Shown one piece after another: positions 15,995-52,528 of a stretch of 61,734 nucleotides of DNA. The position numbers were made by a program, and so were the translations under genes. Origin of the DNA: a virus (Duplodnaviria > Caudoviricetes); IMG/VR virus record IMGVR_UViG_3300022074_000037, positions 1 through 61,734 of that record; one strand, given 5' to 3'. Numbering within the stretch: position 1 is the stretch's first letter; every line of letters begins with the position of its first letter. The notes beneath the pieces were generated by a model. The model ran no database searches. It was given only the letters and a program-made list of their open reading frames with translations, and was not told where the DNA came from.

Positions 15995-16468
15995 ATGTCC
16001 GATAAACTTTGGAGAAAGGTTAAGAAAATGGAATTAGGTAATCCGATTATCACAGCACTTGTAGGCCTTGTAGTATTTTATATCGGTTTGAAAATGTTTT
16101 CTGGTGGTATGAAATCTATGGGTAATATGGAACACCTTGCATTCTTCTTAGGTAATCCAATTTATATGTTCTTTGGTGGTATTGTTATGACATTGCTCTG
16201 GCAATCATCATCACTCTCAACAACGGCAATCATTGCATTAGTTGCTTCTGGTGCGTTACCACTTCCTGCCGCAATAGGGGCAGTTCTTGGTGCAAACATA
16301 GGAACGACAGGTACAATCTGGTTGGCAGGACTTCTGGTTTCAGATGGAATGCCTAAGGGTGATACCTTGAGGGTTGCACTTGCACATTCTGGTGCAAATC
16401 TATTCATGTCTATCATGTTACTACCTTGGGTACATCATATCGCAAGGTTCTTAGGTAAGGTAGGGTGA
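15995..16468 (+). CDS. Na+/phosphate cotransporter-family protein (single repeat)
   Basis: QSSS motif, GANIGTT, AH..ANL; hydrophobic. Confidence 0.85.
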   Translation: MSDKLWRKVKKMELGNPIITALVGLVVFYIGLKMFSGGMKSMGNMEHLAFFLGNPIYMFFGGIVMTLLWQSSSLSTTAIIALVASGALPLPAAIGAVLGANIGTTGTIWLAGLLVSDGMPKGDTLRVALAHSGANLFMSIMLLPWVHHIARFLGKVG

Positions 16469-16602
16469 TTCGGCACGATTCGGCATTTTACACTAATCTA
16501 AACTAAAAACTCTAAAAAATCTCTCACGAAAGCCCTTGATTTACAAGGGCTTTTTTTTATTTTAAAAAAGGCCTTGACTTTGTTCTCAAAACATCGTATA
16601 GT
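16466..16602 (+). promoter_or_regulatory. modular early promoter 1
   Basis: TGATTCG 16466, CGATTCG 16476; AAGCCCTTGATTTACAAGGGC-T8; TTGACT(16574)-17-TATAGT with TGTTCTCAAAACA. Confidence 0.85.
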
Positions 16603-16631
16603 GTATATGTAATTGAGAGAAAGGACTTCAA

Positions 16632-16874
16632 ATGACAAATCAAGAAACAATTTTTATCGGTGCCGACAACGGTGGTATTAAAGTTTACAAAGGTGTTGGT
16701 AACAATGTTGGGTTTGCAAAGACCGCTAAGATGCTTGCATATATCCTTGACACCCACAAGATTTACGGTGAAGTGATGTTCACAAGCAGCATGGACTTTG
16801 CTGATGAGTATGGGTTTGACCACTATAACGGTGCGAAAGACCTTTGGAATGAAGCTGTTGAGATGAGGGTTTAA
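16632..16874 (+). CDS. early hypothetical protein
   Basis: GAGAGAAAGGA leader. Confidence 0.75.
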   Translation: MTNQETIFIGADNGGIKVYKGVGNNVGFAKTAKMLAYILDTHKIYGEVMFTSSMDFADEYGFDHYNGAKDLWNEAVEMRV

Positions 16875-16876
16875 TT

Positions 16877-17113
16877 ATGGGTTACTTTTACGATGATTGG
16901 AAGGACAAAAAGATGTTTGTCGAGAACGCAGAAGGTCAGTTTGTTATGAACTTTGGTGAAGCCGAAAAGTCAATGATTCAGAATCTTGAAGATGCTGTCA
17001 TCAATCTTACAGAAGGTGCTTCTGATGAGAAGAGAATGGCCATTGGATACATGGAGTATCTTGCAGATTGCCTGAAAAGGGGTAAACTTGAAGTGAAGTG
17101 GAATATCTCATAG
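16877..17113 (+). CDS. early hypothetical protein
   Basis: GAGG RBS. Confidence 0.7.
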   Translation: MGYFYDDWKDKKMFVENAEGQFVMNFGEAEKSMIQNLEDAVINLTEGASDEKRMAIGYMEYLADCLKRGKLEVKWNIS

Positions 17114-17121
17114 GAGTAGAA

Positions 17122-17322
17122 ATGTTTAACAATGTAGGACATCCAATCGAAGGTTGGGCAATTCTGAAATGTGAATCAGACAATCAACCAGAAATTGTTT
17201 CTTTGCACCAATGTTTGGGTAATGCAGAGGAAGAAAAGATGGTTCTGAATGAAATGGCCGAGGGTACAGATACTACCTTTGTAGTAAAAAATACTTTTGG
17301 TTGCATGATAGAAACGGTCTAA
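17122..17322 (+). CDS. early hypothetical protein
   Basis: AGGAG RBS before ATG 17122. Confidence 0.7.
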   Translation: MFNNVGHPIEGWAILKCESDNQPEIVSLHQCLGNAEEEKMVLNEMAEGTDTTFVVKNTFGCMIETV

Positions 17323-17329
17323 AAACTAC

Positions 17330-17358
17330 TTGACATTGTTCTGATAACATGATAGCAT
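17330..17358 (+). promoter_or_regulatory. early promoter 2 with spacer palindrome
   Basis: TTGACA-17-TAGCAT; TGTTCTGATAACA. Confidence 0.8.
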
Positions 17359-17382
17359 ATGTATAGAAAGTGAGGAAATATT

Positions 17383-17739
17383 ATGAGTTTAAAAGTTTTA
17401 GAGTTTGAAAATGATGATGCATTGAATACCAATGGTTATCATTATATCAGTTGTGTTACTACCACTTATGACAAGTTGGTAGAGATTTTTGGTAAACCAA
17501 CATACACAGATGCAGACCCATATGAAAAGGTCAATGCAGAGTGGACTATCGAGGCCAAGGTTGTCGATGGAGATGATGACCCAGATGATTACTATTACAA
17601 GGGGTTCACCGTCTACAATTGGAAAACTGGTTACATTCCTACTGAGGAATACGAGTGGCACGTTGGTGGTAAAGATTATGAGTCAATGGAGGCTCTGCAT
17701 GAAATCTTTGAGAATCACATAAATAAATCTAAAGGATAA
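17383..17739 (+). CDS. early hypothetical protein
   Basis: GAGG RBS; LVEIFGKP...FTVYNWK...WHVGG. Confidence 0.75.
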   Translation: MSLKVLEFENDDALNTNGYHYISCVTTTYDKLVEIFGKPTYTDADPYEKVNAEWTIEAKVVDGDDDPDDYYYKGFTVYNWKTGYIPTEEYEWHVGGKDYESMEALHEIFENHINKSKG

Positions 17740-17745
17740 GATGTT

Positions 17746-17958
17746 ATGGTAACAATTACAACGGCAGTAACCATTACTATGTGTTGTACGATGTTCGCAT
17801 TTTACTTTGGTCAGAACCTTGGTCGTAGGGAAAGGATTGAAGTAATTATTGACTCCATGCTTACACGTTTGGAGAAAGATGGGTTCATCAGAACTAAAAA
17901 AGGTAAAGATGGGGAGACAGAATTAATTCCCATAAAAGACTTGACAAATGGTGGATAA
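17746..17958 (+). CDS. small membrane-anchored protein
   Basis: AAGGA RBS; N-terminal hydrophobic segment. Confidence 0.65.
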   Translation: MVTITTAVTITMCCTMFAFYFGQNLGRRERIEVIIDSMLTRLEKDGFIRTKKGKDGETELIPIKDLTNGG

Positions 17959-18074
17959 TGTTATAATATGAGTTTGAGAGTCGGAATTAAGGTTGGTTGG
18001 CCCACTTTGAAAGTTCCAAATATTATGGTGTGGGGATGCAAGTTTCCGACTCTCATTTTATTATGTTGGAGATT

Positions 18075-18644
18075 ATGAACAAATACATTGGAATGACATT
18101 GATACTTGGATTGAGCGGTTGTCCGACTTGGGCGCCTGCATACGAGAATCAAACCCCATGTGATTATGAACATCTAGTAAACTCTTCATACATATATACA
18201 ATTCAGAACACAAAAGAATTCAAGAAAGAGGTGTTTCCTTATGTCGAGGACACCAGAAAATGCGTTATCACAATGTGGGTAACCATTGAGGATAAGACAT
18301 ACCCAGCACAAGGTAGTTATGTATTTGGGCCTGATATGACAGAAAATCAGGCGTGTGAGTTCGCAGAGAAGAAAGCGAAAGAACAGGTAATACGAGAAGT
18401 ATCACCTGTTAAGTTGTCTTCCAATACTGACCTTTCATGCATCAAGAAAGATGTTGTAGAGGCACCAGAAGAGGAAGTTATTGTTAGTAGTGAGGTTGTA
18501 GAGGTTCGTCCTGTAACACTGGCTGATAAGTTCAAACCTATCAAACCATCTTACAGTCCAGACCCAACTTACTATTATGGAAACTACGACAGTGGTAAGA
18601 TTACTTTTAGTAGTGTACTGTCGTTATTATTAGGGGGTATGTAA
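18075..18644 (+). CDS. exported protein, possible lipoprotein
   Basis: GGAG RBS; LSG-C; sigma70-like promoter near 17941. Confidence 0.65.
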   Translation: MNKYIGMTLILGLSGCPTWAPAYENQTPCDYEHLVNSSYIYTIQNTKEFKKEVFPYVEDTRKCVITMWVTIEDKTYPAQGSYVFGPDMTENQACEFAEKKAKEQVIREVSPVKLSSNTDLSCIKKDVVEAPEEEVIVSSEVVEVRPVTLADKFKPIKPSYSPDPTYYYGNYDSGKITFSSVLSLLLGGM

Positions 18645-18784
18645 TGTTTAAATTCATATTCGGTATTGTTGTGGGTATTATTCTTGTCACCTATTACCCA
18701 GATATTATAACAACCACCACTGATTGGTTTATCGACAGTGGTGCTCGTGACGAAGTAATCGAAACTCTAGAAGGGATGAAATGA
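18644..18784 (+). CDS. small membrane protein (46 aa, not in ORF track)
   Basis: MFKFIFGIVVGIILVTYYP; coupled on both sides. Confidence 0.65.
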   Translation: MFKFIFGIVVGIILVTYYPDIITTTTDWFIDSGARDEVIETLEGMK

Positions 18785-19449
18785 TGAAAAATGTGATTAT
18801 GATTGGTGCGGTTGCATCTTTACTTGCGGCGTGTTCTAGTACAAAGAATGTCGCAGTGATGGACTCACCACCACCACACTCTGGTGTTGATAAGGAAGTT
18901 TATGAGTACAAGGCCAAACTTGCAAATCAACAGGTGAAGGCGATGCCTGAATGGTATACGAAAATTCCAGAAGATGAAGAGGCGATTTTTGCAGTTGGTA
19001 CGGCAGTATCACCAGACCTACAGTTGTCTAATGATATTGCAATTCTACTTGCAAAGAGAACACTTGCTGACCGTATCAATGGTGAGTTGCGTTCTCAAAC
19101 AAAGTCGTTTGTATCGAAGATTGGTACTGATGCGAATGCCTCAGTCTTGAATGAGATTGAGACAGTGACTAAAAATCTGATTGCAGATGTTGATGTTGCT
19201 GGTTACAGGGTCAAGGAATCTGATGTTGTAGTAAACGGTACACAGTATCGTGTTTACGTTCTGTTGGAATATTCCAGTGCAGAGGCAACCAAGATTCTTA
19301 TGAATAGACTAAAACGAGAGAAACAATTGTTGTCTAAGATTTCTGCACTGAACGCTTTCAAGGAACTTGATGCACAGGTGACTGAGAAGAAAAATAGTGA
19401 TGCAGAGAAACTTGACAAGATTGTGGAAACAATAACCACAGAGGGATAA
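18781..19449 (+). CDS. lipoprotein (LPP20-like)
   Basis: Lipobox LAAC; PEWY...FAVGTA. Confidence 0.75.
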   Translation: MMKNVIMIGAVASLLAACSSTKNVAVMDSPPPHSGVDKEVYEYKAKLANQQVKAMPEWYTKIPEDEEAIFAVGTAVSPDLQLSNDIAILLAKRTLADRINGELRSQTKSFVSKIGTDANASVLNEIETVTKNLIADVDVAGYRVKESDVVVNGTQYRVYVLLEYSSAEATKILMNRLKREKQLLSKISALNAFKELDAQVTEKKNSDAEKLDKIVETITTEG

Positions 19450-19668
19450 ATGGAAGTAAGGGTCAGAAAGGGTAGAGATGGTAAACCAGATGTTAATGGT
19501 GCCATTCGTGTACTAAAGAAGAAACTTATGAAGGAAGGGTTCTTTCAAGAACTAAGAGCCCGTGAATCTTTTATGAGTAGGGGTGAAAAGAAACGCAAAC
19601 AAAAGGCCGCAGGCCGAAGACGTTGGTTGCGTAATCAGGCAAAACTGAAGGATGAGAGAGGTTACTAA
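19450..19668 (+). CDS. rpsU: 30S ribosomal protein bS21
   Basis: V.VR..DVNGAIRVLKKKLMKEG.FQELRARESF..RGEKKRK; very basic, 72 aa. Confidence 0.85.
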   Translation: MEVRVRKGRDGKPDVNGAIRVLKKKLMKEGFFQELRARESFMSRGEKKRKQKAAGRRRWLRNQAKLKDERGY

Positions 19669-19669
19669 A

Positions 19670-20065
19670 ATGCCAAGACGTAAAATGACACCAGAACAGA
19701 GAGAGGCTGCCGCAGAACGGTTGCGTCTTGCAAGGGAAAAAAGGTTGCGTGAGAACCCACCTAAGTATTCTAATATACACCCATCTGTTTTGACGTTACC
19801 AGATGAACATCCATTCTCAAGAGTGAATGTTACAAAGTATATCAAAACCCAGAAGGAACAGCTTTCTTCATATCGGGCGGCGGTACGTCAAAAGGTAAAG
19901 GGTGCGATTGCAAACGAAGCATCATGTAAGGCGTATATTCGACACTGTGAAACGTACTTACGAAATGGTGATTGGTGTGATGACTTCTATGGTGAATACC
20001 AAGAGAAGCGAGTTAAGTGGGTGACTGTTGTGCCTGCTGGTCGGAAGGTGGATGATGACGGATGA
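19670..20065 (+). CDS. hypothetical protein
   Basis: GAGG RBS before ATG 19670. Confidence 0.7.
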   Translation: MPRRKMTPEQREAAAERLRLAREKRLRENPPKYSNIHPSVLTLPDEHPFSRVNVTKYIKTQKEQLSSYRAAVRQKVKGAIANEASCKAYIRHCETYLRNGDWCDDFYGEYQEKRVKWVTVVPAGRKVDDDG

Positions 20066-20462
20066 TGGACAGACTAGTAACATTGTGCAGTTCCCAAAGA
20101 AGTATGTGGGTATTGCACCAAAAGTGACAAACTTTGATGCGATGAAACTCAATAAAGAGTTACAGTTCGCAGACGAGTTAACGGATGGAATTATGGTTTC
20201 AATGATACATAATATGGATGAGAATGACGTAGAGATTTCCGAAAGTAAGTTTATACAGGATATTGCATTTTTGTCTGAGGCTATCAAAGCGACCATATAC
20301 AGAGATAGAGGGTTTACTCATCCTTTTCAAAACTTGATTGAATTGATTTCAAATGTGAGTTATGATGAGAAGGAAAAGAAGCACGATGTCCATATGGACA
20401 TGGAATTGATAAGAGAATTGTCAGAAGACTTCACTGAGGATGATGACCCAGACAAGGCATAA
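20052..20462 (+). CDS. hypothetical protein
   Basis: NIVQFPK motif; in operon. Confidence 0.7.
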   Translation: MMTDDGQTSNIVQFPKKYVGIAPKVTNFDAMKLNKELQFADELTDGIMVSMIHNMDENDVEISESKFIQDIAFLSEAIKATIYRDRGFTHPFQNLIELISNVSYDEKEKKHDVHMDMELIRELSEDFTEDDDPDKA

Positions 20463-20471
20463 GGTGATAAT

Positions 20472-21326
20472 ATGATTTTAGTTGATATGAACCAAGTGAC
20501 GCTTTCTAATCTGATGATTCAGATTGGCCGCAACACTGAAGTTGACCCAGACATGGTTCGACATATGGTTCTCAATTCATTAAGGGGTTATCGTAGTAGA
20601 TTCAATGAAGAGTTCGGAGAACTGGTACTATGTTATGATAACAAAAGTAATTGGAGAAGAGAATACTTTCCAAATTACAAACACGGTAGACGTAAAGACC
20701 GTAAGGCATCCAAGTTAGATTGGGGTTCGATATTCGATACCTTGCATCTAATCAAAAAAGAATTAGAAGAGAATCTGCCCTACAAGGTTTTAGAAGTAGA
20801 GAACGCAGAGGCCGATGACATTATCGCATCTGTTGTATCCTACGTTGCAGAAACACCTTCACACTATGAGAAGGTATTGATTGTATCTGGTGACAAAGAT
20901 TTCATTCAATTGCAGAAACACAGTTTCGTTACACAATACAGTCCGACACTGAAAAAGTTCGTGAACGGTATTGACCCAGACGTATACATCAAAGAACACA
21001 TCCTAAAGGGTGACCGTAGTGATGGAGTACCAAACTTCTTATCACCAGATAATTGTTTTGTAGATGAATTACGTCAACGTCCTATCTCAAAGAAGAAACT
21101 GGCGACATGGGTTGACCTTGTCCCAGAGGATTTTTGTAACGAAGAGATGTTGCGAAATTATCAACGCAACAGAAAACTGATAGACTTAGAGTATGCACCA
21201 GATGAGATTAACAAGGCCTGTGTGGATACCTATCTAAATAGTTCGGTAAATGATAGAAGTGGTCTATTAAACTACTTCATTAAACATCGACTAAAAAACC
21301 ATATGGAAAATATTGGAGACTTTTAA
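20472..21326 (+). CDS. rnh: T4-type RNase H / 5'-3' exonuclease
   Basis: ILVD, WR..FP.YK..R, EADDII, SGDKDFIQL, GDRSDGVPN. Confidence 0.95.
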   Translation: MILVDMNQVTLSNLMIQIGRNTEVDPDMVRHMVLNSLRGYRSRFNEEFGELVLCYDNKSNWRREYFPNYKHGRRKDRKASKLDWGSIFDTLHLIKKELEENLPYKVLEVENAEADDIIASVVSYVAETPSHYEKVLIVSGDKDFIQLQKHSFVTQYSPTLKKFVNGIDPDVYIKEHILKGDRSDGVPNFLSPDNCFVDELRQRPISKKKLATWVDLVPEDFCNEEMLRNYQRNRKLIDLEYAPDEINKACVDTYLNSSVNDRSGLLNYFIKHRLKNHMENIGDF

Positions 21327-21327
21327 A

Positions 21328-21786
21328 ATGGCAGTGAATACATATACACCTTTACTACATGAGGTGCTGAAGAAAGTTCATAATGCAAAGACTAAAGAGA
21401 AGAAGATTGAAATTCTTAGAGAGAATAATAGTGATGCATTGCGAATGATTATTAAGGGTTCATTTGACCCTAAAATCGAATGGATTTTACCACCTGGCGA
21501 AGTTCCTTTCAACAGAAACGAAGCCCCAGATGGAACTGAACACACTTTACTCTTCCAAGAGTCAAAGAAGTTATACAGGTTCATCAAAGGTGGTGACAAC
21601 CAAACACCGCAATGGAAGAAGGAACAGATGTTCGTTCAGATGTTGGAAGGTCTGTCTCAAGGCGAGGCAGAGGTGGTAGTGGCCGCAAAGGATAAAAAAT
21701 TACATCAAGTCTATAAAGGACTTTCGGCGGTTGTTGTCAAAGAAGCGTTTGGGTGGAATGACGAATTTGTTGACCCAAATAAGTAA
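21328..21786 (+). CDS. conserved T4-like hypothetical protein
   Basis: FDPKIEW.LP.G.VP...EQMFVQMLEGL; follows rnh. Confidence 0.75.
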   Translation: MAVNTYTPLLHEVLKKVHNAKTKEKKIEILRENNSDALRMIIKGSFDPKIEWILPPGEVPFNRNEAPDGTEHTLLFQESKKLYRFIKGGDNQTPQWKKEQMFVQMLEGLSQGEAEVVVAAKDKKLHQVYKGLSAVVVKEAFGWNDEFVDPNK

Positions 21787-21792
21787 AACTTC

Positions 21793-21821
21793 TTGACATT
21801 TTGGTACTGATGAGGTACTAT
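21793..21821 (+). promoter_or_regulatory. sigma70-type promoter of the candidate sRNA
   Basis: TTGACA-17-TACTAT. Confidence 0.75.
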
Positions 21822-21826
21822 GATTA

Positions 21827-21949
21827 AAGACTTGGTAATGAGGTTGTTATGAAACGGAACACGACTCCTCTCTCTCTCACTTTCAGTGTTCCAGTGATTC
21901 GGCGTGATTTGCTAAAGTCTTGGGGGGAAACGAACTTTCCCCCCTTTTT
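21827..21949 (+). ncRNA. candidate small RNA with CU-rich anti-Shine-Dalgarno loop
   Basis: Own promoter and terminator; AAGACTT/AAGTCTT and GGAACAC/GTGTTCC stems close loop GACTCCTCTCTCTCTCACTTTCA. Confidence 0.7.
21923..21949 (+). terminator. intrinsic terminator
   Basis: GGGGGAAA/TTTCCCCC stem plus U-run. Confidence 0.85.
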
Positions 21950-21955
21950 CTTTTC

Positions 21956-22026
21956 TAAACCCTTGATTTTCAAGGATTATTTAGTTCGTTTTTTCCCTTG
22001 ACATTGTTATCAAAACATAGTAGCAT
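21956..22026 (+). promoter_or_regulatory. modular early promoter 3
   Basis: TAAACCCTTGATT (IHF consensus); TTGACA(21998)-17-TAGCAT with TGTTATCAAAACA; TGATTCG at 21895. Confidence 0.85.
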
Positions 22027-22056
22027 ATACTTGTAATGATGAGAAAGAGAGTAAAT

Positions 22057-22485
22057 ATGAATTACGTTGTTGTAGAGGGTGGGAACAAAGTCCAGAGAGA
22101 CATTGCCGAGAAGGTAGTGAATTTCATGATTGGTCAGTTGTTACCACGACATCGTACACTGGATATTACAGTTCAGTTAAACAAGATGAATGATGACGCA
22201 ATCGGTTACTGTCAGATGGAAGATACCAATCGTGAGTTCATCATCGAAGTTGACAAGACCATTGGTATCAAAGAGTTGGTGACCACAATTTGTCATGAGA
22301 TGATTCATGTCAAACAGTATGTCCGAAATGAAATGAACGATGATTTGGTCGAGAATGGCCAGGCCGTTTGGAGAGGTCGTAAGGTCAACCCAAACACAAA
22401 GTATTACGACTTACCTTGGGAGAAGGAAGCGTATCGTCTACAAGACAAATTTGCAAACCTAGTATGGAAAGAGGAGATTATATAA
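22057..22485 (+). CDS. zincin-like metallopeptidase
   Basis: HEMIHVKQ (HExxH) and PWEKEA. Confidence 0.75.
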   Translation: MNYVVVEGGNKVQRDIAEKVVNFMIGQLLPRHRTLDITVQLNKMNDDAIGYCQMEDTNREFIIEVDKTIGIKELVTTICHEMIHVKQYVRNEMNDDLVENGQAVWRGRKVNPNTKYYDLPWEKEAYRLQDKFANLVWKEEII

Positions 22486-22793: not shown

Positions 22794-23035
22794 TGAAATT
22801 CAAAAACACTTCTGCGCCGTTGACGATTAATCTTGACGGCCCAGATGGAAATGCATTTGTACTCTTGGGTACTGCACGAAGTCTTGCTCGACAACTCGAC
22901 ATGGATGAAGACGCAATCACCAAGGAAATGCAATCTGGTGACTATATGAATCTGGTCAAGACAATGGACAAGTATTTCCCCTTTGTTGTTTTTGAAACAA
23001 ACAATGATGAATATATGGAGGCGTTTCATGCTTAA
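22790..23035 (+). CDS. early hypothetical protein
   Basis: LDGPDGNAF..SGDY motif. Confidence 0.7.
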   Translation: MMKFKNTSAPLTINLDGPDGNAFVLLGTARSLARQLDMDEDAITKEMQSGDYMNLVKTMDKYFPFVVFETNNDEYMEAFHA

Positions 23036-27357: not shown

Positions 27358-27782
27358 TGTATCAATACAAATGTAAATTGGTGAAAGTAGTTGATGGTGA
27401 CACAATTGATGTTGACATTGACTTGGGCTTTGGAGTGTGGTTACGCAAACAACGGATTCGTATGTATGGTATCGACACACCAGAATCTAGAACCAGAGAC
27501 TTAGAAGAAAAGAAATATGGATTGGCCGCAAAGGCGTTCCTAGAGAAATGGACAAACGCTGGTCATCTTGTTCTTAGAACATTTAAGGATGGTAAAGGTA
27601 AGTATGGTCGTATCCTTGGACAGATTTGGTACGAGGACACTCACAATATTAATCAACTTCTAATCGACAATCATCATGCGGTTGCATATCATGGTCAATC
27701 AAAACAAGAGATTGCTGAGGAGCATATCAAAAACAGAGAGTTCGTTAATCTTAACGATGCTGTAAAATCCCTTGACAATTGA
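27357..27782 (+). CDS. thermonuclease (SNase-like)
   Basis: VVDGDTID, R.YGIDTPE, GKYGRIL. Confidence 0.88.
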   Translation: MYQYKCKLVKVVDGDTIDVDIDLGFGVWLRKQRIRMYGIDTPESRTRDLEEKKYGLAAKAFLEKWTNAGHLVLRTFKDGKGKYGRILGQIWYEDTHNINQLLIDNHHAVAYHGQSKQEIAEEHIKNREFVNLNDAVKSLDN

Positions 27783-27807
27783 ATCAGTCTTTGGTATAAA
27801 TATAATA

Positions 27808-28093
27808 CAGTTTGATGATACAAATCAAAGGACGGACAGGACATGGGGGCAGTACCCATCGCCTCCACCATAACTACTCTTAGATGAGATAGTGAATCAC
27901 TGCATGAGAGTAGTTATGATGGGGGCGAACTAGGTTCGACTGACGTAGATAGAGGCGAGTAGAATTGTCGGATGACTGCGTAATAGGTCAAAACTCGTAA
28001 ATGCAAACGATAACAATGCATATGTAGATTACGCTCTCGCAGCCTAATCGTACTGAGTTTCGGTGGTGTACTTGGAAACAGAAACACCACCAC
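27808..28093 (+). ncRNA. ssrA: permuted two-piece tmRNA (alphaproteobacterial type), tag ANDNNAYVDYALAA
   Basis: Acceptor piece ends CGCCTCCACCA at 27870; hairpin intervening segment; coding piece starts GGGGGCG at 27921 (G3.U70); tag frame 28003-28047; promoter TTGACA 27772 and TATAAATA 27795; outer ends approximate. Confidence 0.92.
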
Positions 28094-28110
28094 TTAATTT
28101 TGGAGATAGT

Positions 28111-41564: not shown

Positions 41565-41741
41565 ATGAAAGCGAAACAAAAACAGAAACTAAAAAAGTTC
41601 ACCAATTTGCAGAGACAATCAAGGGAGTTAGAACCTATGAACCCAGAGGAACATAAATACATTAAAGAGTTGTTAGAGAAAGTAGACCATGAAAACATTT
41701 CAAGACTTACAAGAGGGAGTTTACGACCCCAATATATTTAA
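41565..41741 (+). CDS. small basic hypothetical protein
   Basis: AAGGA RBS. Confidence 0.5.
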   Translation: MKAKQKQKLKKFTNLQRQSRELEPMNPEEHKYIKELLEKVDHENISRLTRGSLRPQYI

Positions 41742-42357
41742 AGCCATATTCATGGCAGGTGGGCCTGGCAGTGGTAAGTCTTATGTTGCAAGACGAACCA
41801 CTGGTGGGATGGGTATGAAGATGGTCAACAGCGATGACATCTATGAAAAGATGTTGAATGACGCTGGACTAGATACCACACCAGAAGACATTTATTCAGA
41901 CCAAGGACAAGAGATTCGTGGACGAGCGAAAGGTGTTACCAAACGTATGCAAGGTAACTTCCTTGAAGGACGTTTAGGACTCATCATTGACGGTACAGGT
42001 AAAGACTACGACAAGATTGCAAAACAGGTACAAGGCCTGAGAGCTCTTGGTTACGAATGTTACATGATATTTGTCAATACATCACTTGATACTGCACAGG
42101 AACAGAATGCAAAACGCAAACGTACACTTCCAGAGAAGGAAGTTACTACAATGTGGAATGCGGTGCAAAACAACATTGGTAAATTCCAGAGATTATTCGG
42201 TGGTAAGAACTTCATCATTGTCGATAATAACATGGCTGGTGAAGACGTATTTGAAAAGGTCTGGAAAAGATGTATGTTACTGATTCGCAAAAAGGTCACG
42301 AATCGCATCGCAAAAGCGTGGATTGCGAAGGAACTCGCAAAGAAAAACAGAAATTAA
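41689..42357 (+). CDS. P-loop kinase (zeta-toxin/AAA_33-like)
   Basis: GGPGSGKS Walker A, VNSDD, IIDGTG; N-terminus MKTFQDLQE. Confidence 0.8.
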   Translation: MKTFQDLQEGVYDPNIFKAIFMAGGPGSGKSYVARRTTGGMGMKMVNSDDIYEKMLNDAGLDTTPEDIYSDQGQEIRGRAKGVTKRMQGNFLEGRLGLIIDGTGKDYDKIAKQVQGLRALGYECYMIFVNTSLDTAQEQNAKRKRTLPEKEVTTMWNAVQNNIGKFQRLFGGKNFIIVDNNMAGEDVFEKVWKRCMLLIRKKVTNRIAKAWIAKELAKKNRN

Positions 42358-42431
42358 TTTAGAAACCCTTGATTTACAAGGGTTTTTTTCTTTATAAACC
42401 TCTTGACATTGTTCTCATAACATGATAGCAT
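42281..42431 (+). promoter_or_regulatory. modular early promoter 4
   Basis: TGATTCG 42281, CGAATCG 42299; AAACCCTTGATTTACAAGGG-T7; TTGACA(42403)-17-TAGCAT with TGTTCTCATAACA. Confidence 0.85.
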
Positions 42432-42464: not shown

Positions 42465-43115
42465 ATGTACAACAGTTCAACAGATGCCTACCAAGCGGCT
42501 GCAAAAATCATGTCTCATGATTATGCAAACAAGTACGCTAATTACTGGTCAAAGAAAAACAAGGTAATTAAAACAGGTAAGGCCAACTTCAAAGATGCCG
42601 GTCGTCAAAAGACCTACAATGCAGAATTCGCTGCCATTGCAGAGTATCGAAACAAATATCCCAATGACGTAAAATTCAAACGATTGAACTGGAAACAGTC
42701 AGAACGATATTTCAAGAAGATTGCAAAGTCTAAAACATATCAGGCATTGTGCAAGAAAGAGGATGCGTCACGTTATGGTCGATTAGACCCACAACTTGAA
42801 CTTGCACACTTTCGTGGACGCACCGCTGGACAGGCGACTTGGTATGGTACAATGCGTCTTCAAGAGAACAACTGTCCTTACACAATCATTCATGAGTTCG
42901 CACACTTGTGTGGGAATATGCATCATGACATTGGATTCCGTAGGGATGTAATCAAACTGTCTTCACGGTTCTTAGGAACTGAGTTTGCAAAAATGTTAAA
43001 AGGTCAGTTTAAGAAGGCCAAACTGAAAGTTACCGTATCGCAACACATTATGACACCAGAGAAGTGGATTGAGAGTGTGATGCGTATGGAGAAAATACGA
43101 GAAGGAAATATATGA
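42465..43115 (+). CDS. early protein with HExxH metallopeptidase motif
   Basis: IIHEFAH.....HH...F. Confidence 0.7.
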   Translation: MYNSSTDAYQAAAKIMSHDYANKYANYWSKKNKVIKTGKANFKDAGRQKTYNAEFAAIAEYRNKYPNDVKFKRLNWKQSERYFKKIAKSKTYQALCKKEDASRYGRLDPQLELAHFRGRTAGQATWYGTMRLQENNCPYTIIHEFAHLCGNMHHDIGFRRDVIKLSSRFLGTEFAKMLKGQFKKAKLKVTVSQHIMTPEKWIESVMRMEKIREGNI

Positions 43116-45491: not shown

Positions 45492-45506
45492 TAAAAGGAG
45501 TAAAAA

Positions 45507-45917: not shown

Positions 45918-46099
45918 CATATGAACCAGACACATTCATGTCTCAACCAGACGGTAAAATCGTCTACGAAGAGCATATTCGATATATCAAGGATGAAAAC
46001 GGTGTGTTGACCAAACACACAGTGACCAGACACTTCTATGGTGATGGTGACTATCAAGACGGTCAACATTCAACACCACTAAACGGCCCAGATTGGTAA
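45914..46099 (+). CDS. hypothetical protein
   Basis: ATGA coupling. Confidence 0.6.
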   Translation: MTYEPDTFMSQPDGKIVYEEHIRYIKDENGVLTKHTVTRHFYGDGDYQDGQHSTPLNGPDW

Positions 46100-46100
46100 T

Positions 46101-46997: not shown

Positions 46998-47158
46998 GAA
47001 CGAATATTAGAGAGTATATAAACCATTTAAAAGAGTTACACCATGAACTGAATAAGGACAAACATCCAACTAAAGAGATGAAGGTTCAGAAACTAAAACT
47101 CAAGGACGAGATATTCAAACTTGAACAACAATTCGCAGAGGAATATTGGAGTACATGA
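46994..47158 (+). CDS. small DUF465/YdcH-like protein (54 aa)
   Basis: H.EL...K.QKLKLKDEI. Confidence 0.55.
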   Translation: MRTNIREYINHLKELHHELNKDKHPTKEMKVQKLKLKDEIFKLEQQFAEEYWST

Positions 47159-47325
47159 ATTACATATTTAAGATATGGCAATACGCACTAGGTAGTTATA
47201 GTGACGAAAAGACTCAACCATATGACATAGGTATGTTACTTATTAGAACGGCATGGGTTGCACTACACATTATAACGTGTCTGTTCATCATTGTAGGAAA
47301 CGGAAGGGTATTAGAATTATGGTAA
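47155..47325 (+). CDS. small membrane protein (56 aa)
   Basis: IW.YALGS....T..YD; coupled. Confidence 0.6.
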   Translation: MNYIFKIWQYALGSYSDEKTQPYDIGMLLIRTAWVALHIITCLFIIVGNGRVLELW

Positions 47326-47555
47326 AAGACAATAGGACGTTTTATAGTAAACACATGGGTGTAGACGAATACGCAGATAGAACCGCCTGTATTTTCAAGA
47401 ACGAACATGGCCATTGGGAAGTAGATTTCTGGCAGGCAGATAAACTAATAGAAACAGTTGTCATGAAAACAGAACATGGTGATGAGGTAGTATTTCATAA
47501 TGAGACATACGCTGATTCCGCCGCAGAGAATTATGTATTAGGGTATCATAGATAG
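47319..47555 (+). CDS. hypothetical protein
   Basis: Ends AENYVLG. Confidence 0.6.
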   Translation: MVKDNRTFYSKHMGVDEYADRTACIFKNEHGHWEVDFWQADKLIETVVMKTEHGDEVVFHNETYADSAAENYVLGYHR

Positions 47556-47632
47556 ACTACTATATAATAATGTAATCAGACTGTCGAAAGACGAATTGAT
47601 TACCCAAATGTTTAACAACGAAAAGGAGAAAT

Positions 47633-48643
47633 ATGATGTCAAACATTAAGACGATTCTAGGTCGTGACATTGACCTAGTTACAATTCAACAACAAAACCC
47701 ACAGTCAGAGATTCAACGCAAACTTCCAGATGGAGTAGATTACGTTGGTATCAAATGGCGTGAAATTCCAGAACATCCGACAGACGATAACCTTGGGGTT
47801 CGTGCATTAGGTACACCGAATGCATATGATACACTTGGGTTTGACCTCAAGAGAAACGGTTGGGATATCACCGCTGACCTTCCAGTAGAAGACGTAGATG
47901 ATGGTGAACTCAACGATGGTCGAACCAGAGAAGGTGAGATGCGTAGATTGGGTGAGAAGTGGATGCCTGTTGTGGTCGCTAAGATTGCACCAGAACTGAA
48001 ACGTGCATCTGCGGTCAAGTTAAACAATCACAGTTACTCTAAGAGAATGACGATGGATGACTGTGTTGTTGCGTTGGTTGAGGATATCGCAGATGGGTAT
48101 GTATTACCGAACCAAGATTCGATTGAGACGGCTTTGCATACACGATATAACGTATCAGAACTCTTTCACGAAGGTGGAGGCACATACACCAAGATTGTAT
48201 TGAAGGTACTCGACAGAGTAAACAATGCGGATGAGGTAGTGCGTAACAAGGAAGGTTCTGGTTGGCAAGATTGGGTCAACGCAAACACGGAGTATTCTGG
48301 TATTCATACTATCAACGCTGGAGGCAAGGCCCCACAAAGGTTCTTTGCAGACCATATAGTACCAAAGGGTAGAAAAGGCGAGAAAGTCCAAGTCATTCTA
48401 TATGCACATGAGACAACAGTAGAGAGATGTAAGGAAGTATTTCGTCTATTCAGAAAGAACACAAACAAACTCTATTCAGATGCATTTCACATGGTCATGA
48501 ACACAGTGCCAGGCATCAAGATTGACATCCCAGAACAAGGGTATGAGATTGTCGGTATCGTTCCACAAGTACAGAATGACGTACAAAAGGATGCATACGA
48601 AAACGGTGAACTCATCTCATGGGATGACTATATGAACCAGTAA
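47633..48643 (+). CDS. hypothetical protein with possible ParB/Srx-like N-domain
   Basis: AAGGAG RBS; GW..P...LNDGRTR. Confidence 0.55.
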   Translation: MMSNIKTILGRDIDLVTIQQQNPQSEIQRKLPDGVDYVGIKWREIPEHPTDDNLGVRALGTPNAYDTLGFDLKRNGWDITADLPVEDVDDGELNDGRTREGEMRRLGEKWMPVVVAKIAPELKRASAVKLNNHSYSKRMTMDDCVVALVEDIADGYVLPNQDSIETALHTRYNVSELFHEGGGTYTKIVLKVLDRVNNADEVVRNKEGSGWQDWVNANTEYSGIHTINAGGKAPQRFFADHIVPKGRKGEKVQVILYAHETTVERCKEVFRLFRKNTNKLYSDAFHMVMNTVPGIKIDIPEQGYEIVGIVPQVQNDVQKDAYENGELISWDDYMNQ

Positions 48644-48698
48644 AATAAATAAGTGTACAGGGGATAAAACCTCTGTACACATTTCCAAGAGGATAGAC

Positions 48699-48845
48699 AT
48701 GGACAGATACGACTTATACGCATTCATCATCGCATTAACCCTTGCATTCCTTATAGGGTTTATCATGGGAGAAGGAACACTTGGTATCGCACTGGTAACA
48801 GGTCTAACCACATATATCGGTATACGACTATTGGAGTACATATGA
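48699..48845 (+). CDS. small two-TM protein (48 aa)
   Basis: GAGGA RBS. Confidence 0.55.
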   Translation: MDRYDLYAFIIALTLAFLIGFIMGEGTLGIALVTGLTTYIGIRLLEYI

Positions 48846-48998
48846 ATAAGATGTTAATATGTCTATTGGTATCACAGAACATAGTCATCGCTGATACAGG
48901 GGAAAGAGATAGAATGTGTGTATATAAGTGTCAAAAGAACGAGAAAGAAACCGTATATACACATCCAGTATATCAATGTCCAAAGAGGTTGTATATAG

Positions 48999-49223
48999 AT
49001 GACAAAACAGAGTAAGTATACACAAAGACAATGGGATAGAACAGTAGGATGGGGAACAGTACCAGATGAATATAGTCACGTTTCCACTGACAGTACAGAT
49101 GGACAAGATAGTAAGACAAGCGAAGAGAGTAGAGAAAAGGTCTATAGAACTGTTAGAGAGATACAAGAAGAATGGACACTTGATGACCCTAGATGGGATG
49201 AAAGATGGTATTGCGGAAAGTAA
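48999..49223 (+). CDS. hypothetical protein
   Basis: GAGG RBS. Confidence 0.55.
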   Translation: MTKQSKYTQRQWDRTVGWGTVPDEYSHVSTDSTDGQDSKTSEESREKVYRTVREIQEEWTLDDPRWDERWYCGK

Positions 49224-49320
49224 TCCCAGAGAAACCCATGATATCCCATGATTCCCCATAAATTAAAAAAAGGTTAAAAAGAATATAGCTGTCTTGTCTT
49301 TAAATCCTGCGGCCTATCGG

Positions 49321-49488
49321 CGAATCGGGCCGAATCACCTGCCAAATAACACACGAAATCCCACGAAATGTTACCAGAACAACCTATGGACAGACTGTCG
49401 CACCTCAGAAGCCCTTGATTTATAAGGGCTTTTTCTTTGATTTTTTTTGGCGAAAGCCCTTGACAACTCCTTGACATTCTGGTATTAT
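49321..49488 (+). promoter_or_regulatory. modular early promoter 6 (no spacer palindrome)
   Basis: CGAATCG 49321, CGAATCA 49331; AAGCCCTTGATTTATAAGGGC; TTGACA(49460)-17-TATTAT. Confidence 0.75.
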
Positions 49489-49543
49489 CTGTATGTAGAG
49501 TGAGAATAAAGACTAAATCTAATAACTAATGAGAGGTATGAAT

Positions 49544-49798
49544 ATGGATAGAATGATATGGACTGACGCTGAAGCTTACATGGGTAGAGGTATTAAAGAC
49601 CCAGAGAATGACCATGAGTACAACACCACTGAGTTTCACAGTGGCCCTGAGAACAAGAGAGAGTGTCCTTGTGATACTTGTCCTATGTTTGATATGTGCG
49701 CCAAGGATGGTACTGAGTGTAGTGCGTTCCGTAATTGGGGTACGAATGGTGACTTCAAGGATGCAGATGTGCAGAGGTTACTAAGGGTTGCTGCCTAA
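49544..49798 (+). CDS. small Cys-cluster protein
   Basis: CPCDTC....C......C..F; ends VAA. Confidence 0.7.
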   Translation: MDRMIWTDAEAYMGRGIKDPENDHEYNTTEFHSGPENKRECPCDTCPMFDMCAKDGTECSAFRNWGTNGDFKDADVQRLLRVAA

Positions 49799-49882
49799 TG
49801 AGAGGTATACTGTTGTTCGGACTGTTTACCTTTGTGATGTTAATGATGCTGGCCAAGTGTGCTGGTTTATAGAGGAGTTGTT

Positions 49883-50230
49883 ATGAGTACAAAAGAGTTT
49901 ACTGCACAGGAGATTGCAGACATCAATAAGGATTTCGCTGTAGGTAATGCGATTACCAAGTGGAAGTTTATGCAGACACCAGAGTATGCGAGACTGCCTG
50001 ATGCGGTGAGGTTCACAGTAGAGAAGGAGTGTCTTACGCATTACTTCAATATACTTACTGATGGTATGCCTGATTGGAAGTTGCCTATCTCTGGTACTAT
50101 TCCTATTAGAGACTTGAATCCATTCAGAGCCGCCGTGGAGTATTTCACTGGTACGGAACTGTCTGTCATTGAACAGGACGGCACCAACTTCAAGGTGTTC
50201 GCAAAGGGGTATTACATGATGGGCGATTAG
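49883..50230 (+). CDS. early hypothetical protein
   Basis: GAGGAG RBS; DWK.PI...AVEYFTG...GYY. Confidence 0.7.
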   Translation: MSTKEFTAQEIADINKDFAVGNAITKWKFMQTPEYARLPDAVRFTVEKECLTHYFNILTDGMPDWKLPISGTIPIRDLNPFRAAVEYFTGTELSVIEQDGTNFKVFAKGYYMMGD

Positions 50231-50301
50231 TACTTGACATTTGGTTGAGAGTGTGGTAGTGTAAGGCTATAGTATGGGTATCCCCTAAAACTGAGTGCCG
50301 A

Positions 50302-50490
50302 TTGATAATCTATAAATGCAATAAAGATACGGAGATATATTTGTTAGATAAGTTTCATTTCAAAGTAATCTACCCAGACGGAGAGGTAGAGTATTGGTTT
50401 AACACAGTCGCAGAGACAATCGCAGAGTTGTCCAGACTACAGAAGATACATGACAACAAGGTTCAAATCAAAGGGCCACTAACACTATAG
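50302..50490 (+). CDS. hypothetical protein
   Basis: TTG start; downstream of TTGACA at 50235. Confidence 0.45.
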   Translation: MIIYKCNKDTEIYLLDKFHFKVIYPDGEVEYWFNTVAETIAELSRLQKIHDNKVQIKGPLTL

Positions 50491-50566
50491 GGCCTGTAGT
50501 TCAACTGGATAGAATGTCAGTCTACGAAACTGAAGGTTCATGGTTCGAGTCCATGCAGGCCCACCA
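50490..50566 (+). tRNA. tRNA-Arg (ACG)
   Basis: GGGCCTG/CAGGCCC acceptor, TCAGT-CTACGAA-ACTGA, GGTTCGA, CCA. Confidence 0.93.
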
Positions 50567-50578
50567 TAAGGAGTTCAT

Positions 50579-51076
50579 ATGAATAAGACAGAAGAGATAA
50601 TGGTCAACACTATGGAAGAGTGTGGCGAACTTGTGCAAGCGTGTTCCAAAGCAATACGCAGAGGAGAAATGTTTCGCAACTCTGATAGTGAGATTACATT
50701 CAAAGAAGAAGTAGGTGATGTCTATACAATGATATGTCTACTGGTTGAACATGGTTATATTACATGGGATGAGATATCTCAACGTGAAAAGATTAAACGT
50801 GCAAAGTTAAAGAAGTGGTCTAAGTTAGATATCTTGGATGACCCCCACCCCCCAAAATCTGAAGAGAAAGAAAAGAACTTCCCTAGTAATTCTGTTACAT
50901 GGAGACAATCCACTGATTATAATTATGTGGATGAAAGAGGATATGGTAGAGTTACCTATGTGAAAGAAGACAACACAAATTGGTCTTCAGAACCTATGAG
51001 TGAATATGAAGAACGTGAGTGGGAACGTATTGAACAGATTATGGAAAGTCAGAAACGTGGAAAAGAAACTATCTAA
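50579..51076 (+). CDS. MazG-like nucleotide pyrophosphohydrolase
   Basis: EECGELVQA.SK...EEVGDV. Confidence 0.8.
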   Translation: MNKTEEIMVNTMEECGELVQACSKAIRRGEMFRNSDSEITFKEEVGDVYTMICLLVEHGYITWDEISQREKIKRAKLKKWSKLDILDDPHPPKSEEKEKNFPSNSVTWRQSTDYNYVDERGYGRVTYVKEDNTNWSSEPMSEYEEREWERIEQIMESQKRGKETI

Positions 51077-51314
51077 GGTAACACCTCTACATGACCTTAC
51101 ATGGTATGTGAAATGGGTGAGTACACTTCTGGTGATTGCAGCCGTTATGTGTCGTTCTCTTGAACTGCATCTATATGATATGGTGTTCAGTTTGTTGGGA
51201 GTAATCGGATGGACATTCGTAGGCCTGCGCTGGCACGACAGAGCGCTCACTCTTCTTAACACCGTATTAGGTGTACTACTTATCTTAGGTATCGGTAAGT
51301 ACTTCGTTTCTTAG
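51057..51314 (+). CDS. small three-TM membrane protein
   Basis: WYVKW...W.DRAL..LN; start uncertain. Confidence 0.65.
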   Translation: MEKKLSKVTPLHDLTWYVKWVSTLLVIAAVMCRSLELHLYDMVFSLLGVIGWTFVGLRWHDRALTLLNTVLGVLLILGIGKYFVS

Positions 51315-51321
51315 TGGTTAC

Positions 51322-51407
51322 GCCCCTGTGGTGGAATAGGTAGACACACAAGACTTAAAATCTTGAGACTTTTAGTCGTGCGAGTTCGAGTCTCGCTGGG
51401 GGCACCA
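51322..51407 (+). tRNA. tRNA-Leu (TAA)
   Basis: CAAGA-CTTAAAA-TCTTG, long variable arm, GTTCGA, CCA. Confidence 0.93.
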
Positions 51408-51411
51408 CCGC

Positions 51412-51561
51412 CGAATCACTTTGCGAATCATCTGTACGATTCGCTGAAAAAACCTCTTCCCTTCCCAAAAAATCCAAAAATCCGACTCGTAAGTCACTGA
51501 TATTATTGAGAAAATAAATCTGTTTTTTGCCCTTGACTTGTTATGAAAACATTGGTATAGT
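51412..51561 (+). promoter_or_regulatory. modular early promoter 7
   Basis: CGAATCA 51412 and 51424, CGATTCG 51437, CGACTCG 51483; TAAGTCACTGATA; TTGACT(51533)-17-TATAGT with TGTTATGAAAACA. Confidence 0.85.
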
Positions 51562-51592
51562 ATATGTATAGTCAATGAGAGAGGTACTAAAA

Positions 51593-51874
51593 ATGTTTCG
51601 TATGAATGATTTCCATGTAGTCGAGGGTATGACTTGGGATGAGGCGGTTCGCATCATCAAGGGTCGTGCTAATGATAACCTTCTTGACGGTATGGAATAT
51701 ATGAACGATGTTTGGAATCGTTATGTCACTGACCAGAACGCCTACTACAATGGTGAGAAGGATGAGATGATTTACGGTGATGATAATGACTTCTTTGAAC
51801 ATTGGTGTTATGAGTGTACTGCTTACAACATTGTGTTTGAAGGTATGGGTAAACTTTTTGGAGAGGCTGCGTAA
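51593..51874 (+). CDS. early hypothetical protein
   Basis: GAGAGAGG leader; ends EAA. Confidence 0.75.
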   Translation: MFRMNDFHVVEGMTWDEAVRIIKGRANDNLLDGMEYMNDVWNRYVTDQNAYYNGEKDEMIYGDDNDFFEHWCYECTAYNIVFEGMGKLFGEAA

Positions 51875-52023
51875 TGACTTTTGATACTTTGGTTATGACT
51901 GACTATGGTATGATAGGACGGATTGGTTCTATTGAGGATGTGGATGGTGTTACATACTACACTGTCTATTTTGATGATGGTGCAGTAAAACGGTTTACTG
52001 CTGATAACTTGGAGATTATATAA
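51874..52023 (+). CDS. small SH3/KOW-like protein (49 aa)
   Basis: TAATG coupling on both sides. Confidence 0.55.
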   Translation: MTFDTLVMTDYGMIGRIGSIEDVDGVTYYTVYFDDGAVKRFTADNLEII

Positions 52024-52208
52024 TGGAACAGTTGACACAATTACAAAATGAGTATGTGTTCTTCAAAGATATGTTGAAGACACTAGAACGAAAGAAGAAG
52101 AAGACTCCAGGCAATGGTTTCGCAATGATGAAGTGCAAAGAAAAGATTGCGGAACTAGAGAAAATCTTCGATGATATTGATTATGCAGCACAGGTGACTT
52201 ATGACTAA
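52023..52208 (+). CDS. hypothetical protein
   Basis: GGAG RBS. Confidence 0.65.
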   Translation: MEQLTQLQNEYVFFKDMLKTLERKKKKTPGNGFAMMKCKEKIAELEKIFDDIDYAAQVTYD

Positions 52209-52449
52209 TACAGAAACAATCGTGAATACTCTATGTGACTTTATCGCTTATGTAGATTCGTTCTACAATGAAAAGTCTGGTATCTATCCTATCAAGGGTA
52301 TGACTAATCAAATGGTCATCAATGGTGTACAAACCTACATCACTCAAATCGGTCAGGCCGAATCACTTGAGTGGGGTGGGGGCGATTCGGTTGACCGTGA
52401 ACGTGTTCGTGACATTATCCTCGCTGACAATGAACTTCAGTGGGGATAA
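52201..52449 (+). CDS. hypothetical protein
   Basis: YV.SFY...GIYP...GGDSVDRERVRD. Confidence 0.7.
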   Translation: MTNTETIVNTLCDFIAYVDSFYNEKSGIYPIKGMTNQMVINGVQTYITQIGQAESLEWGGGDSVDRERVRDIILADNELQWG

Positions 52450-52528
52450 ACCCTTGATATTACTAGGCTTTTTATTTGAAAAAAAAGTGAAAAAAAGCCT
52501 TGACTTGTTATGAAAACATTGATATAGT
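52359..52528 (+). promoter_or_regulatory. modular early promoter 8
   Basis: CGAATCA 52359, CGATTCG 52383; TAAACCCTTGATA; TTGACT(52500)-17-TATAGT with TGTTATGAAAACA. Confidence 0.85.

Follow-up and report, generated by a model that had tools for sequence, protein, structure and literature searches.

The stretch of DNA analyzed here, referred to as the window, is the whole of IMG/VR virus record IMGVR_UViG_3300022074_000037 (61,734 bases, completeness rated at approximately 44%). Between positions 16465 and 52528, six loci in the window each carry a predicted sigma70-type early promoter preceded by an array of short GATTCG units. An earlier note on this DNA had read these loci as a three-part early promoter, consisting of YGAKTCG (GANTC) sites attributed to GcrA and CcrM, an IHF site and a sigma70 core. 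The layout proved real and non-random; the identities given to two of its parts, the IHF site and the GcrA/CcrM site, were not upheld.

Judging from its genes, the source phage is an uncultured marine T4-like myophage of the Melnitz/pelagimyophage group (Kyanoviridae). The window encodes T4-type baseplate and tail proteins (gp5, gp6, gp7, gp8, gp25, gp48 and gp53), other T4-like proteins (gp32, gp59, RNase H and the late co-activator gp33), NrdA/NrdB, ThyX, PhoH, a plastocyanin-like protein and ribosomal protein bS21. Its RNA genes comprise three tRNAs and an alpha-type permuted transfer-messenger RNA (tmRNA). The nearest cultured phages, all Kyanoviridae, are Methylophilales phage Melnitz (57% gp6 identity) and the Pelagibacter phages Mosig and HTVC008M (50-52%). 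The G+C content (GC) of the window is 38-41%, and near-identical DNA was found in 14 seawater or virome DNA runs belonging to 10 studies.

Marine T4-like phages of this group are abundant, and the timing of their gene expression beyond early sigma70 promoters and late gp55/gp33 promoters is at issue. According to the respective reports, middle promoters were sought and not found in Melnitz (PMC9004378) and in pelagimyophages (PMC7029224). An extra control element on early cassettes therefore bears on that question.

For comparison, 80 IMG/VR loci were collected via gp6, supplemented with loci retrieved via the tandem unit and via the hairpin described below; individual loci are denoted by L numbers. 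These loci share ancestry, so that unit and promoter counts across relatives do not represent independent events.

Promoters and terminator hairpins

In T4-like phages, PeSLs (promoter-early stem-loops) have been described as a repeated, conserved terminator followed by a near-consensus sigma70 early promoter, located between small genes (Arbiol et al. 2010, PMC2839356; Comeau et al. 2014, PMC4122927). From their layout, the six loci of the window are PeSL-type cassettes, and the combination of hairpin and promoter is thus already known.

All six -35/-10 pairs of the earlier note were confirmed. The predicted promoters, all on the + strand, fit TTGAC[AT]-N17-TAnnnT and match 10-11 of 12 consensus positions, as expected for the sigma70 type. 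TTGACT and TATAGT are used at locus 1 (16574..16602, with the conserved spacer TTGTTCTCAAAACAT), locus 5 (51533..51561) and locus 6 (52500..52528). TTGACA and TAGCAT are used at locus 2 (21998..22026) and locus 3 (42403..42431), and TTGACA and TATTAT with an extended TG at locus 4 (49460..49488), where a second TTGACA starts at 49471. The spacer measures 17 bp throughout. Promoter plus spacer (CTTGAC-TTGTT-AAAACAT) is conserved, with four matches in the window versus 0.15 expected, and a purine-rich leader is common to the cassette promoters. T4-type late promoters (TATAAATA) lie elsewhere, upstream of structural genes, consistent with naming the cassette promoters early.

Between array and promoter, the earlier note had placed the element (T)AA-N4-TTGATW, about 40-50 bp before the -35. 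This element is present, with TTGATW at 33-45 bp; its attribution to IHF was rejected. The strict IHF consensus WATCAANNNNTTR occurs six times in the window versus 6.27 expected, which is chance level, and at only two of the six loci. At four of the six, the site coincides with the arm and loop of a terminator hairpin, which accounts for its sequence. This hairpin, CCCTTGATTTACAAGGG (at most two mismatches) followed by a U run, is present in four copies in the window versus 0.12 expected. It comprises an 11-bp stem and a 5-nt loop ahead of the U run, with a folding energy of -13 to -15.8 kcal/mol and z scores of -3.0 to -4.9 (4/6 loci). On these structural grounds, four of the six "IHF-like" sites are intrinsic terminators.

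The hairpin of locus 1 (16528..16562, +) has an 11-bp stem, loop ATTTA and a T run (-15.8 kcal/mol, z -4.87). The same sequence type is found at locus 3 (42361..42387, +; -13.0 kcal/mol, z -3.82), and locus 4 carries a terminator hairpin at 49407..49433 (+; -13.1 kcal/mol, z -3.01). Locus 2 has two stem-loops within 21922..21975 (+): the first (21922-21944) is a strong G/C terminator and the second (21961-21975) a hairpin of PeSL type. At locus 5 (51.5 kb) the hairpin is degenerate in the window and intact in L027 and L030, and at locus 6 a degenerate PeSL hairpin remnant with no stable fold is left at 52447..52470 (+).

Phased A-tract pairs (A5-7, 3-6 bases, A5-7) were counted on the + strand, and four of the eight in the window fall within the six loci, at 16505, 49265, 51467 and 52479. 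Such tracts may supply intrinsic bends or UP-like elements.

The window cassettes resemble PeSLs in their repeated stem-loop terminator and near-consensus sigma70 promoter with an A/T-rich region upstream. They also share the location between small, function-unassigned genes in plastic genome regions and may share the tie to gene replacement between relatives. The genes downstream of the window cassettes code for proteins of 80-216 amino acids (aa) with no or weak family matches. Replacement was looked at for one locus, at 51.4 kb, where the upstream context and the downstream gene both differ among relatives. PeSLs have been described in coliphage, Yersinia-phage and Vibrio-phage pairs, whereas the present cassettes belong to the marine Melnitz/pelagimyophage group. 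Moreover, the PeSL descriptions, in the portions available, contain no repeated upstream motif, whereas the window adds a GATTCG array 95-141 bp upstream of the -35 at 6 of 18 strict promoters (defined below). Going by these comparisons, what is new relative to PeSLs is the upstream GATTCG array, together with the extension of the PeSL kind to this marine clade. A literature search for GTGATTCGGC, the commonest form of the array unit with its flanks, or for the unit itself returned, among the 10 papers listed of 724, only unrelated primer-type matches; it did not cover the supplements of the PeSL, Melnitz and pelagimyophage papers, which might list motifs. A second search, on pelagimyophage early promoters and GANTC, yielded no paper with GANTC.

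Downstream of the cassettes at loci 2 and 3 lie two paralogous HExxH genes, 22036-22485 and 42465-43115 (+). Both match phrog_1365, and one gives a weak SprT-like match.

GATTCG arrays upstream of the cassettes

The array unit is Y-GATTCG-S (8 bp), occurring one to three times per array in either orientation. Every YGAKTCG position listed in the earlier note is present in the sequence, and its estimate that the motifs lie mostly about 90-140 bp upstream agrees with the 95-141 bp found between GATTCG units and -35. Among the six loci, alignment is confined to units, hairpin and promoter; the DNA from array to hairpin is unalignable.

Array 1 (16465..16484, +) consists of GTGATTCGGC followed by ACGATTCGGC, two direct units exactly 10 bp apart (16466/16476), and is retained in the orthologous loci L082 and L085. 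The first unit contains the TGA stop of an open reading frame (ORF), 15983-16468 (+). The 161-aa product of this ORF carries a fragment of a Na+/Pi-cotransporter domain (E = 3e-16), and the gene may be an auxiliary metabolic gene or the remnant of one. Array 2 (21894..21913, +) has one exact GTGATTCGGC and a degenerate second unit, GTGATTTGCT; the unit has the opposite orientation in L098 and is missing from L119. Array 3 (42281..42305) consists of two convergent units 17 bp apart, located in the 3' end of ORF 41689-42357, which encodes a zeta-toxin/AAA_33-like ATPase. One unit is retained in L117 and none at the orthologous site of Melnitz, which has the hairpin and promoter corresponding to those at 42.4 kb.

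Array 4 (49319..49338, -) again has two direct units exactly 10 bp apart (49321/49331), GTGATTCGGC and then CCGATTCGCC. Its orthologues in L086 (~2390-2500) and L081 (~5690-5830) adjoin a strong divergent promoter, TTGACA-N17-TATAAT with TG, pointing away from the cassette. This promoter spans a conserved stretch from ATGGGGAA to ATGGGATATCATGGG, and its -35 is missing from the orthologous window segment 49260-49345. The same sites may thus serve promoters on both sides.

Array 5 (51410..51443) follows directly after tRNA-Leu (51322-51407) and contains three units, two reverse and one forward. The order reverse-reverse-forward of the window is replaced by reverse-forward in L027 and L030, forward-forward in L049, L050 and L075, and reverse-forward-forward in L052. 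The promoter-proximal DNA is homologous in all these relatives, with an upstream context that switches between tRNA and ORF. Such turnover of units with retention of the array is what selection on individual short sites predicts. An isolated CGAGTCG at 51483..51489 (-), 50 bp before the -35 and kept in relatives, was not counted among the arrays, as GAGTCG shows no enrichment at their positions.

Array 6 (52357..52391) is formed by two divergent units 25 bp apart within ORF 52201-52449. All 14 aligned relatives keep the core CGAATCAC and the GATTCG hexamers unchanged. Invariant third codon positions numbered 5 of 6 in the units versus 14 of 35 elsewhere (P = 0.08; P = 0.035 when the spacer is included), and this synonymous-site test is only suggestive. 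The motifs thus persist inside upstream coding sequence, as the earlier note had stated, both here (52359/52383) and in array 3 (42281/42299).

A candidate small RNA, 21793-21950 (+), encloses array 2. It would be transcribed from a sigma70-type promoter at 21793-21821, form a hairpin at 21856-21892 with a 23-nt CU-rich loop, and end at the strong terminator at 21922-21944. The same layout was found in four relatives (L085 442-493, L098 586-640, L119 2342-2399 and L167 5033-5090), in which the stem sequences are wholly different, with pairing preserved and the CU-rich loop kept. Complementarity between this loop and the GAGAG purine run that occurs in leaders of early genes driven by the cassettes hints at an anti-Shine-Dalgarno regulator. 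Rfam yielded no match to this RNA at gathering score.

Positional enrichment

Strict promoters were defined independently of the earlier note as TTGAC[AT], 17 bases and TAnnnT, yielding 18 on the + strand of the window. Six of these have GATTCG 95-141 bp before the -35, and the remaining 12 have zero copies within 200 bp upstream. The interval from -150 to -75 of the 18 promoters represents 2.2% of the window and contains 12 of its 30 GATTCG copies (binomial P = 7e-13). By composition 18.3 copies were expected, so the excess equals the arrays. Six adjacent pairs lie at most 30 bp apart, a number reached in 1 of 100,000 random placements. Following an unbiased k-mer count, the 10-mer GTGATTCGGC was found in five exact copies, all in the six loci, versus about 0.06 expected. 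Several coding-derived 10-mers also reach four to five copies, and the argument therefore rests on position and not on copy number.

For YGAKTCG as a whole, the overall count turned out unremarkable (22 versus 15.9 +/- 4.6 expected; 11 of 100 shuffles reach 22), and it was the enrichment by position that bore out the earlier note. GANTC is depleted overall in the window (178 versus 235 +/- 16 expected).

In the relatives (450 kb, 99 strict promoters), 73 GATTCG copies were counted at -150..-75, versus a mean of about 3.4 for composition-matched permuted hexamers; the highest single-bin count of any control hexamer at -150..-75 was 15. When the window and further loci were pooled, 93 of 221 GATTCG copies fell at -150..-75, versus one GAGTCG. 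Only the K = T form of YGAKTCG is therefore enriched in this interval.

Conservation and turnover in relatives

Merging of near-identical arrays left 9 single, 13 double and 5 triple arrays from the window and relatives, 27 in all with a total of 50 units. GATTCG is preceded by C or T in 49 of these units and followed by C or G in 44, and orientations relative to the promoter divide 26:24. The spacing of same-orientation neighbors is 10-13 bp in 13 of 14 pairs, and that of inverted neighbors 11-51 bp. Three units in exact 10-bp register occur in L120. The units persist in relatives with 82-90% gp6 identity, and L087, a relative with 32% GC, has two arrays in the order gene end, unit, terminator, promoter.

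Scanning IMG/VR with the hairpin gave 116 matches, 13 of which were followed by a strict promoter. GATTCG was found at most 160 bp upstream in 7 of these 13, versus 4 of the 103 others (P = 1e-5). The tandem-unit scan gave 10 matches, among them five new relatives (L081, L082, L085, L086 and L087) and L003, which was already among the collected loci. The remaining matches L083, L084, L088 and L089, on unrelated or high-GC contigs, look like chance and were not accepted as arrays.

No arrays were found in the genomes of Melnitz, HTVC008M or Mosig. A single GATTCG pair in Mosig sits inside a coding sequence and was taken as chance. The arrays are therefore best seen as a clade-specific addition to an older cassette.

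Arrays as probable protein-binding regulatory sites

On balance, the arrays are probably protein-binding regulatory sites acting on a subset of the early cassettes. Units that stay exact while spacers, order and orientation drift, with tandem units one helical turn apart, bear the hallmark of sites bound independently by monomers of a DNA-binding protein. From this pattern we infer that a protein binds the units and that binding would affect transcription, in one direction or the other. The hairpin would end the upstream transcription unit, and the strong sigma70-type early promoter with its purine-rich leader would serve the next small gene. A subset of cassettes in this phage clade would then have gained a third part, the array of one to three Y-GATTCG-S units, each a putative site for one monomer of a sequence-specific double-stranded-DNA-binding protein. 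Proteins bound to tandem units one helical turn apart would sit on one face of the DNA. The array would act as an orientation-free upstream module that raises, lowers or times the adjoining early promoter, and it may also insulate this promoter from the upstream transcription unit. As a conserved and rearranging feature of some early cassettes, it offers a handle on a regulator, of host or phage.

Measured from the predicted start, the units are located about 130-176 bp upstream, and an A-tract-rich stretch often separates array and cassette. At rrnB P1, FIS sites provide a comparable case: a very strong sigma70 promoter is preceded, at a distance of approximately 60-150 bp, by several short protein sites, and A-tracts lie in the intervening DNA. 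The window loci share the multiple short sites upstream of a strong sigma70-type promoter, and phased A-tracts at four of six loci; they differ in that the unit is unrelated to the FIS consensus and a terminator separates the sites from the promoter. IHF-dependent enhancer looping likewise involves distant upstream sites, a promoter and something in between. In the window, however, what intervenes is a terminator hairpin, and the promoters are of sigma70 and not sigma54 type. By analogy, the arrays would act in the manner of FIS sites, or of other upstream activator sites serving strong sigma70 promoters, unlike an IHF-looped enhancer.

Several points weigh against this explanation. The 12 of 18 strict promoters lacking an array indicate that it is not needed for promoter function. 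The distance from array to -35 (95-141 bp) shows no helical phasing, and two arrays are embedded in coding DNA, where the synonymous-site test is weak. As the loci of relatives are related, counts across them overstate the sample. Among the 92 window ORFs, a Pfam scan identified no helix-turn-helix or other transcription-factor family. Finally, the arrays always travel with the cassette, so that roles in recombination and in transcription are inseparable from sequence alone.

The GcrA/CcrM alternative

One candidate for the binding protein is a GcrA-like host factor that reads methylated GANTC. As an account of the arrays, the units would be CcrM-methylated GANTC read by a host or phage GcrA on the sigma70 holoenzyme, with the arrays concentrating GcrA-RNA polymerase near early promoters. 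They would be active on fully methylated, injected DNA and lose their effect on new, undermethylated DNA, thereby tying expression to methylation or the cell cycle. This account is possible and, to our judgment, doubtful. The fit of the motif itself held up: Y-GATTCG-S was recovered without use of the pattern in the earlier note and is an exact subset of YGAKTCG, with the Y present in all but one of the dereplicated units. GcrA has been reported to recognize this consensus and to bind as a monomer (PMC9976885), and the free orientation and variable spacing of the units suit such a monomeric reader.

Position spoke against the assignment. In the same report, GcrA boxes are centered at -20, +4 and +12, a single box serves most of the activated promoters, and a linker of about 60 residues ties GcrA to sigma70 (PMC9976885). 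Promoters activated by GcrA in Caulobacter thus share with the window a unit fitting YGAKTCG, monomer-type sites in free orientation and sigma70 promoters, and differ in having usually single boxes at about -20 to +12, whereas the one to three units of the window lie far upstream, beyond a terminator. None of the six core promoters contains GANTC, and the K = G form is not enriched (93 GATTCG versus 1 GAGTCG, as above).

Also in favor of the GcrA/CcrM account, the window contains the alpha-type permuted tmRNA (123 bits), and two of the three closest cultured relatives, Mosig and HTVC008M, infect SAR11. SAR11 has been reported with a CcrM homologue (PMC3973325), and a cluster that includes Pelagibacter is said to have CcrM and GcrA (PMC2877005). 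Against this, the tmRNA of Melnitz is alpha-like and its host is OM43 (PMC9004378), so that tmRNA type does not fix the host. The GC of the window is above the 30-35% range used for SAR11 pelagimyophages (PMC7029224), and SAR11 phages Mosig and HTVC008M, as well as OM43 phage Melnitz, are devoid of arrays. In a search for homologues of gcrA and ccrM, no GcrA (PF07750) or N6/N4 methyltransferase (PF01555) was found in the 44%-complete window, the three complete cultured relatives or two fragments.

Depletion of GANTC in coding DNA (160 versus 215 expected), and not in intergenic DNA (18 versus 17.7), has the direction reported for CcrM-bearing Alphaproteobacteria (PMC3973325). The depletion is, however, carried only by GAGTC/GACTC (45 versus 96.5 expected), with GATTC/GAATC at expectation (133 versus 136). 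Clusters of host CtrA sites in alphaproteobacterial phages, as described in one study (PMC9437464), form a precedent: short regulator sites are clustered in phage regulatory regions, with a proposed coupling to host state. The motif there consists of TTAA repeats, and no positional clustering was reported for the GcrA motif in the phage genomes scanned (PMC9437464).

In its boldest form, this account would make the arrays the first epigenetic early switch of a phage, in which a GcrA-type sigma70 cofactor reads clustered, CcrM-methylated YGATTCGS sites, and some of the early cassettes fire only from the injected, fully methylated genome and are silent on new DNA. We consider this unlikely. If true, it would provide marine T4-like phages lacking MotA/AsiA with the middle-mode control that is missing from them. 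A link with methylation or the cell cycle is neither shown nor excluded, and the exact match to the GcrA/CcrM motif makes it directly testable with long-read metagenomes.

Other proposed roles: recombination, RNA-level action or none

PeSLs have been proposed as sites of modular shuffling through homologous or site-specific recombination (PMC4122927, PMC2839356). The arrays could accordingly be recombination signals, either recombinase or nuclease sites moving PeSL-flanked cassettes or the upstream edge of the homology block in PeSL exchange; we judge this improbable. At 51.4 kb, homology to relatives ends at the array or shortly before it, and relatives also differ in the downstream gene. Units are inverted between orthologous loci (window versus L049/L050; window versus L098), and TnsA-like and PD-(D/E)XK nuclease domains are encoded in the window. 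Gene conversion, however, homogenizes contiguous tracts, and here only 8-10-bp islands are kept, in both orientations and amid unalignable spacers. The arrays lack the fixed inverted-repeat geometry used by site-specific recombinases, and the cassette family also includes PeSLs with no array, in Melnitz and at 12 of the 18 strict promoters of the window.

Action of the units at the RNA level or in termination, as 3'-end elements of upstream transcripts or as sites for a protein roadblock backing the terminator, is very unlikely. The arrays do lie always upstream of the terminator hairpin, by 8-75 nt and within the 3' end of the upstream unit, and some inverted pairs could fold as hairpins (e.g., 51424-51443). 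The nearly even orientation of the units would nevertheless require the RNA to carry two unrelated sequences. Direct repeats are unable to fold into a hairpin, arrays have outlasted the decayed terminator hairpin at 51.5 kb and 52.4 kb, and four other strong terminators on the + strand (15092, 15953, 32606 and 53824) have no GATTCG upstream.

That the arrays are functionless, undecayed leftovers of a duplicated cassette is barely credible: hairpin and promoter spacer do mark the cassettes as related copies, yet the units are exact amid unalignable DNA, kept across 82-90% gp6 identity and in the 32% GC relative, and rearranged, not lost.

Further observations

Next to array 4, the minus-strand ORF 48885-49259 was considered as a divergent regulator gene and rejected; its translation is of implausibly low complexity and it overlaps the plausible + ORF 48999-49223. 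Contigs of four RNA-library runs cover 48800-53800 at low depth, with no information on start, end or strand and with DNA carry-over possible, and no conclusion was drawn from them.

Bacterial genomes were scanned for a host with the phage bS21 protein, yielding no relative, and with a 24-base stretch of tRNA-Arg, yielding no match. The bS21 gene (19450-19668, +) encodes 72 aa with 34% Lys+Arg; the Pfam Ribosomal_S21 match was assigned to this ORF by composition, and no close bacterial relative emerged in the one genome scan.

The tmRNA gene is located at 27768-28094 (+) (Rfam alpha_tmRNA, 123 bits), and ARAGORN predicts the tag peptide ANDNNAYVDYALAA. A late-type TATAAATA lies inside the tmRNA region, at 27795. 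A tmRNA is a known feature of Melnitz-like phages and pelagimyophages.

In ORF 6557-8545 (+), 662 aa with no PHROG match, 12-mers recur at a spacing of 66 bp (7456, 7522 and 7588) and of 72 bp (8060 and 8132). These recurrences, at 7456-7600 and 8060-8145, point to tandem peptide repeats in the predicted protein.

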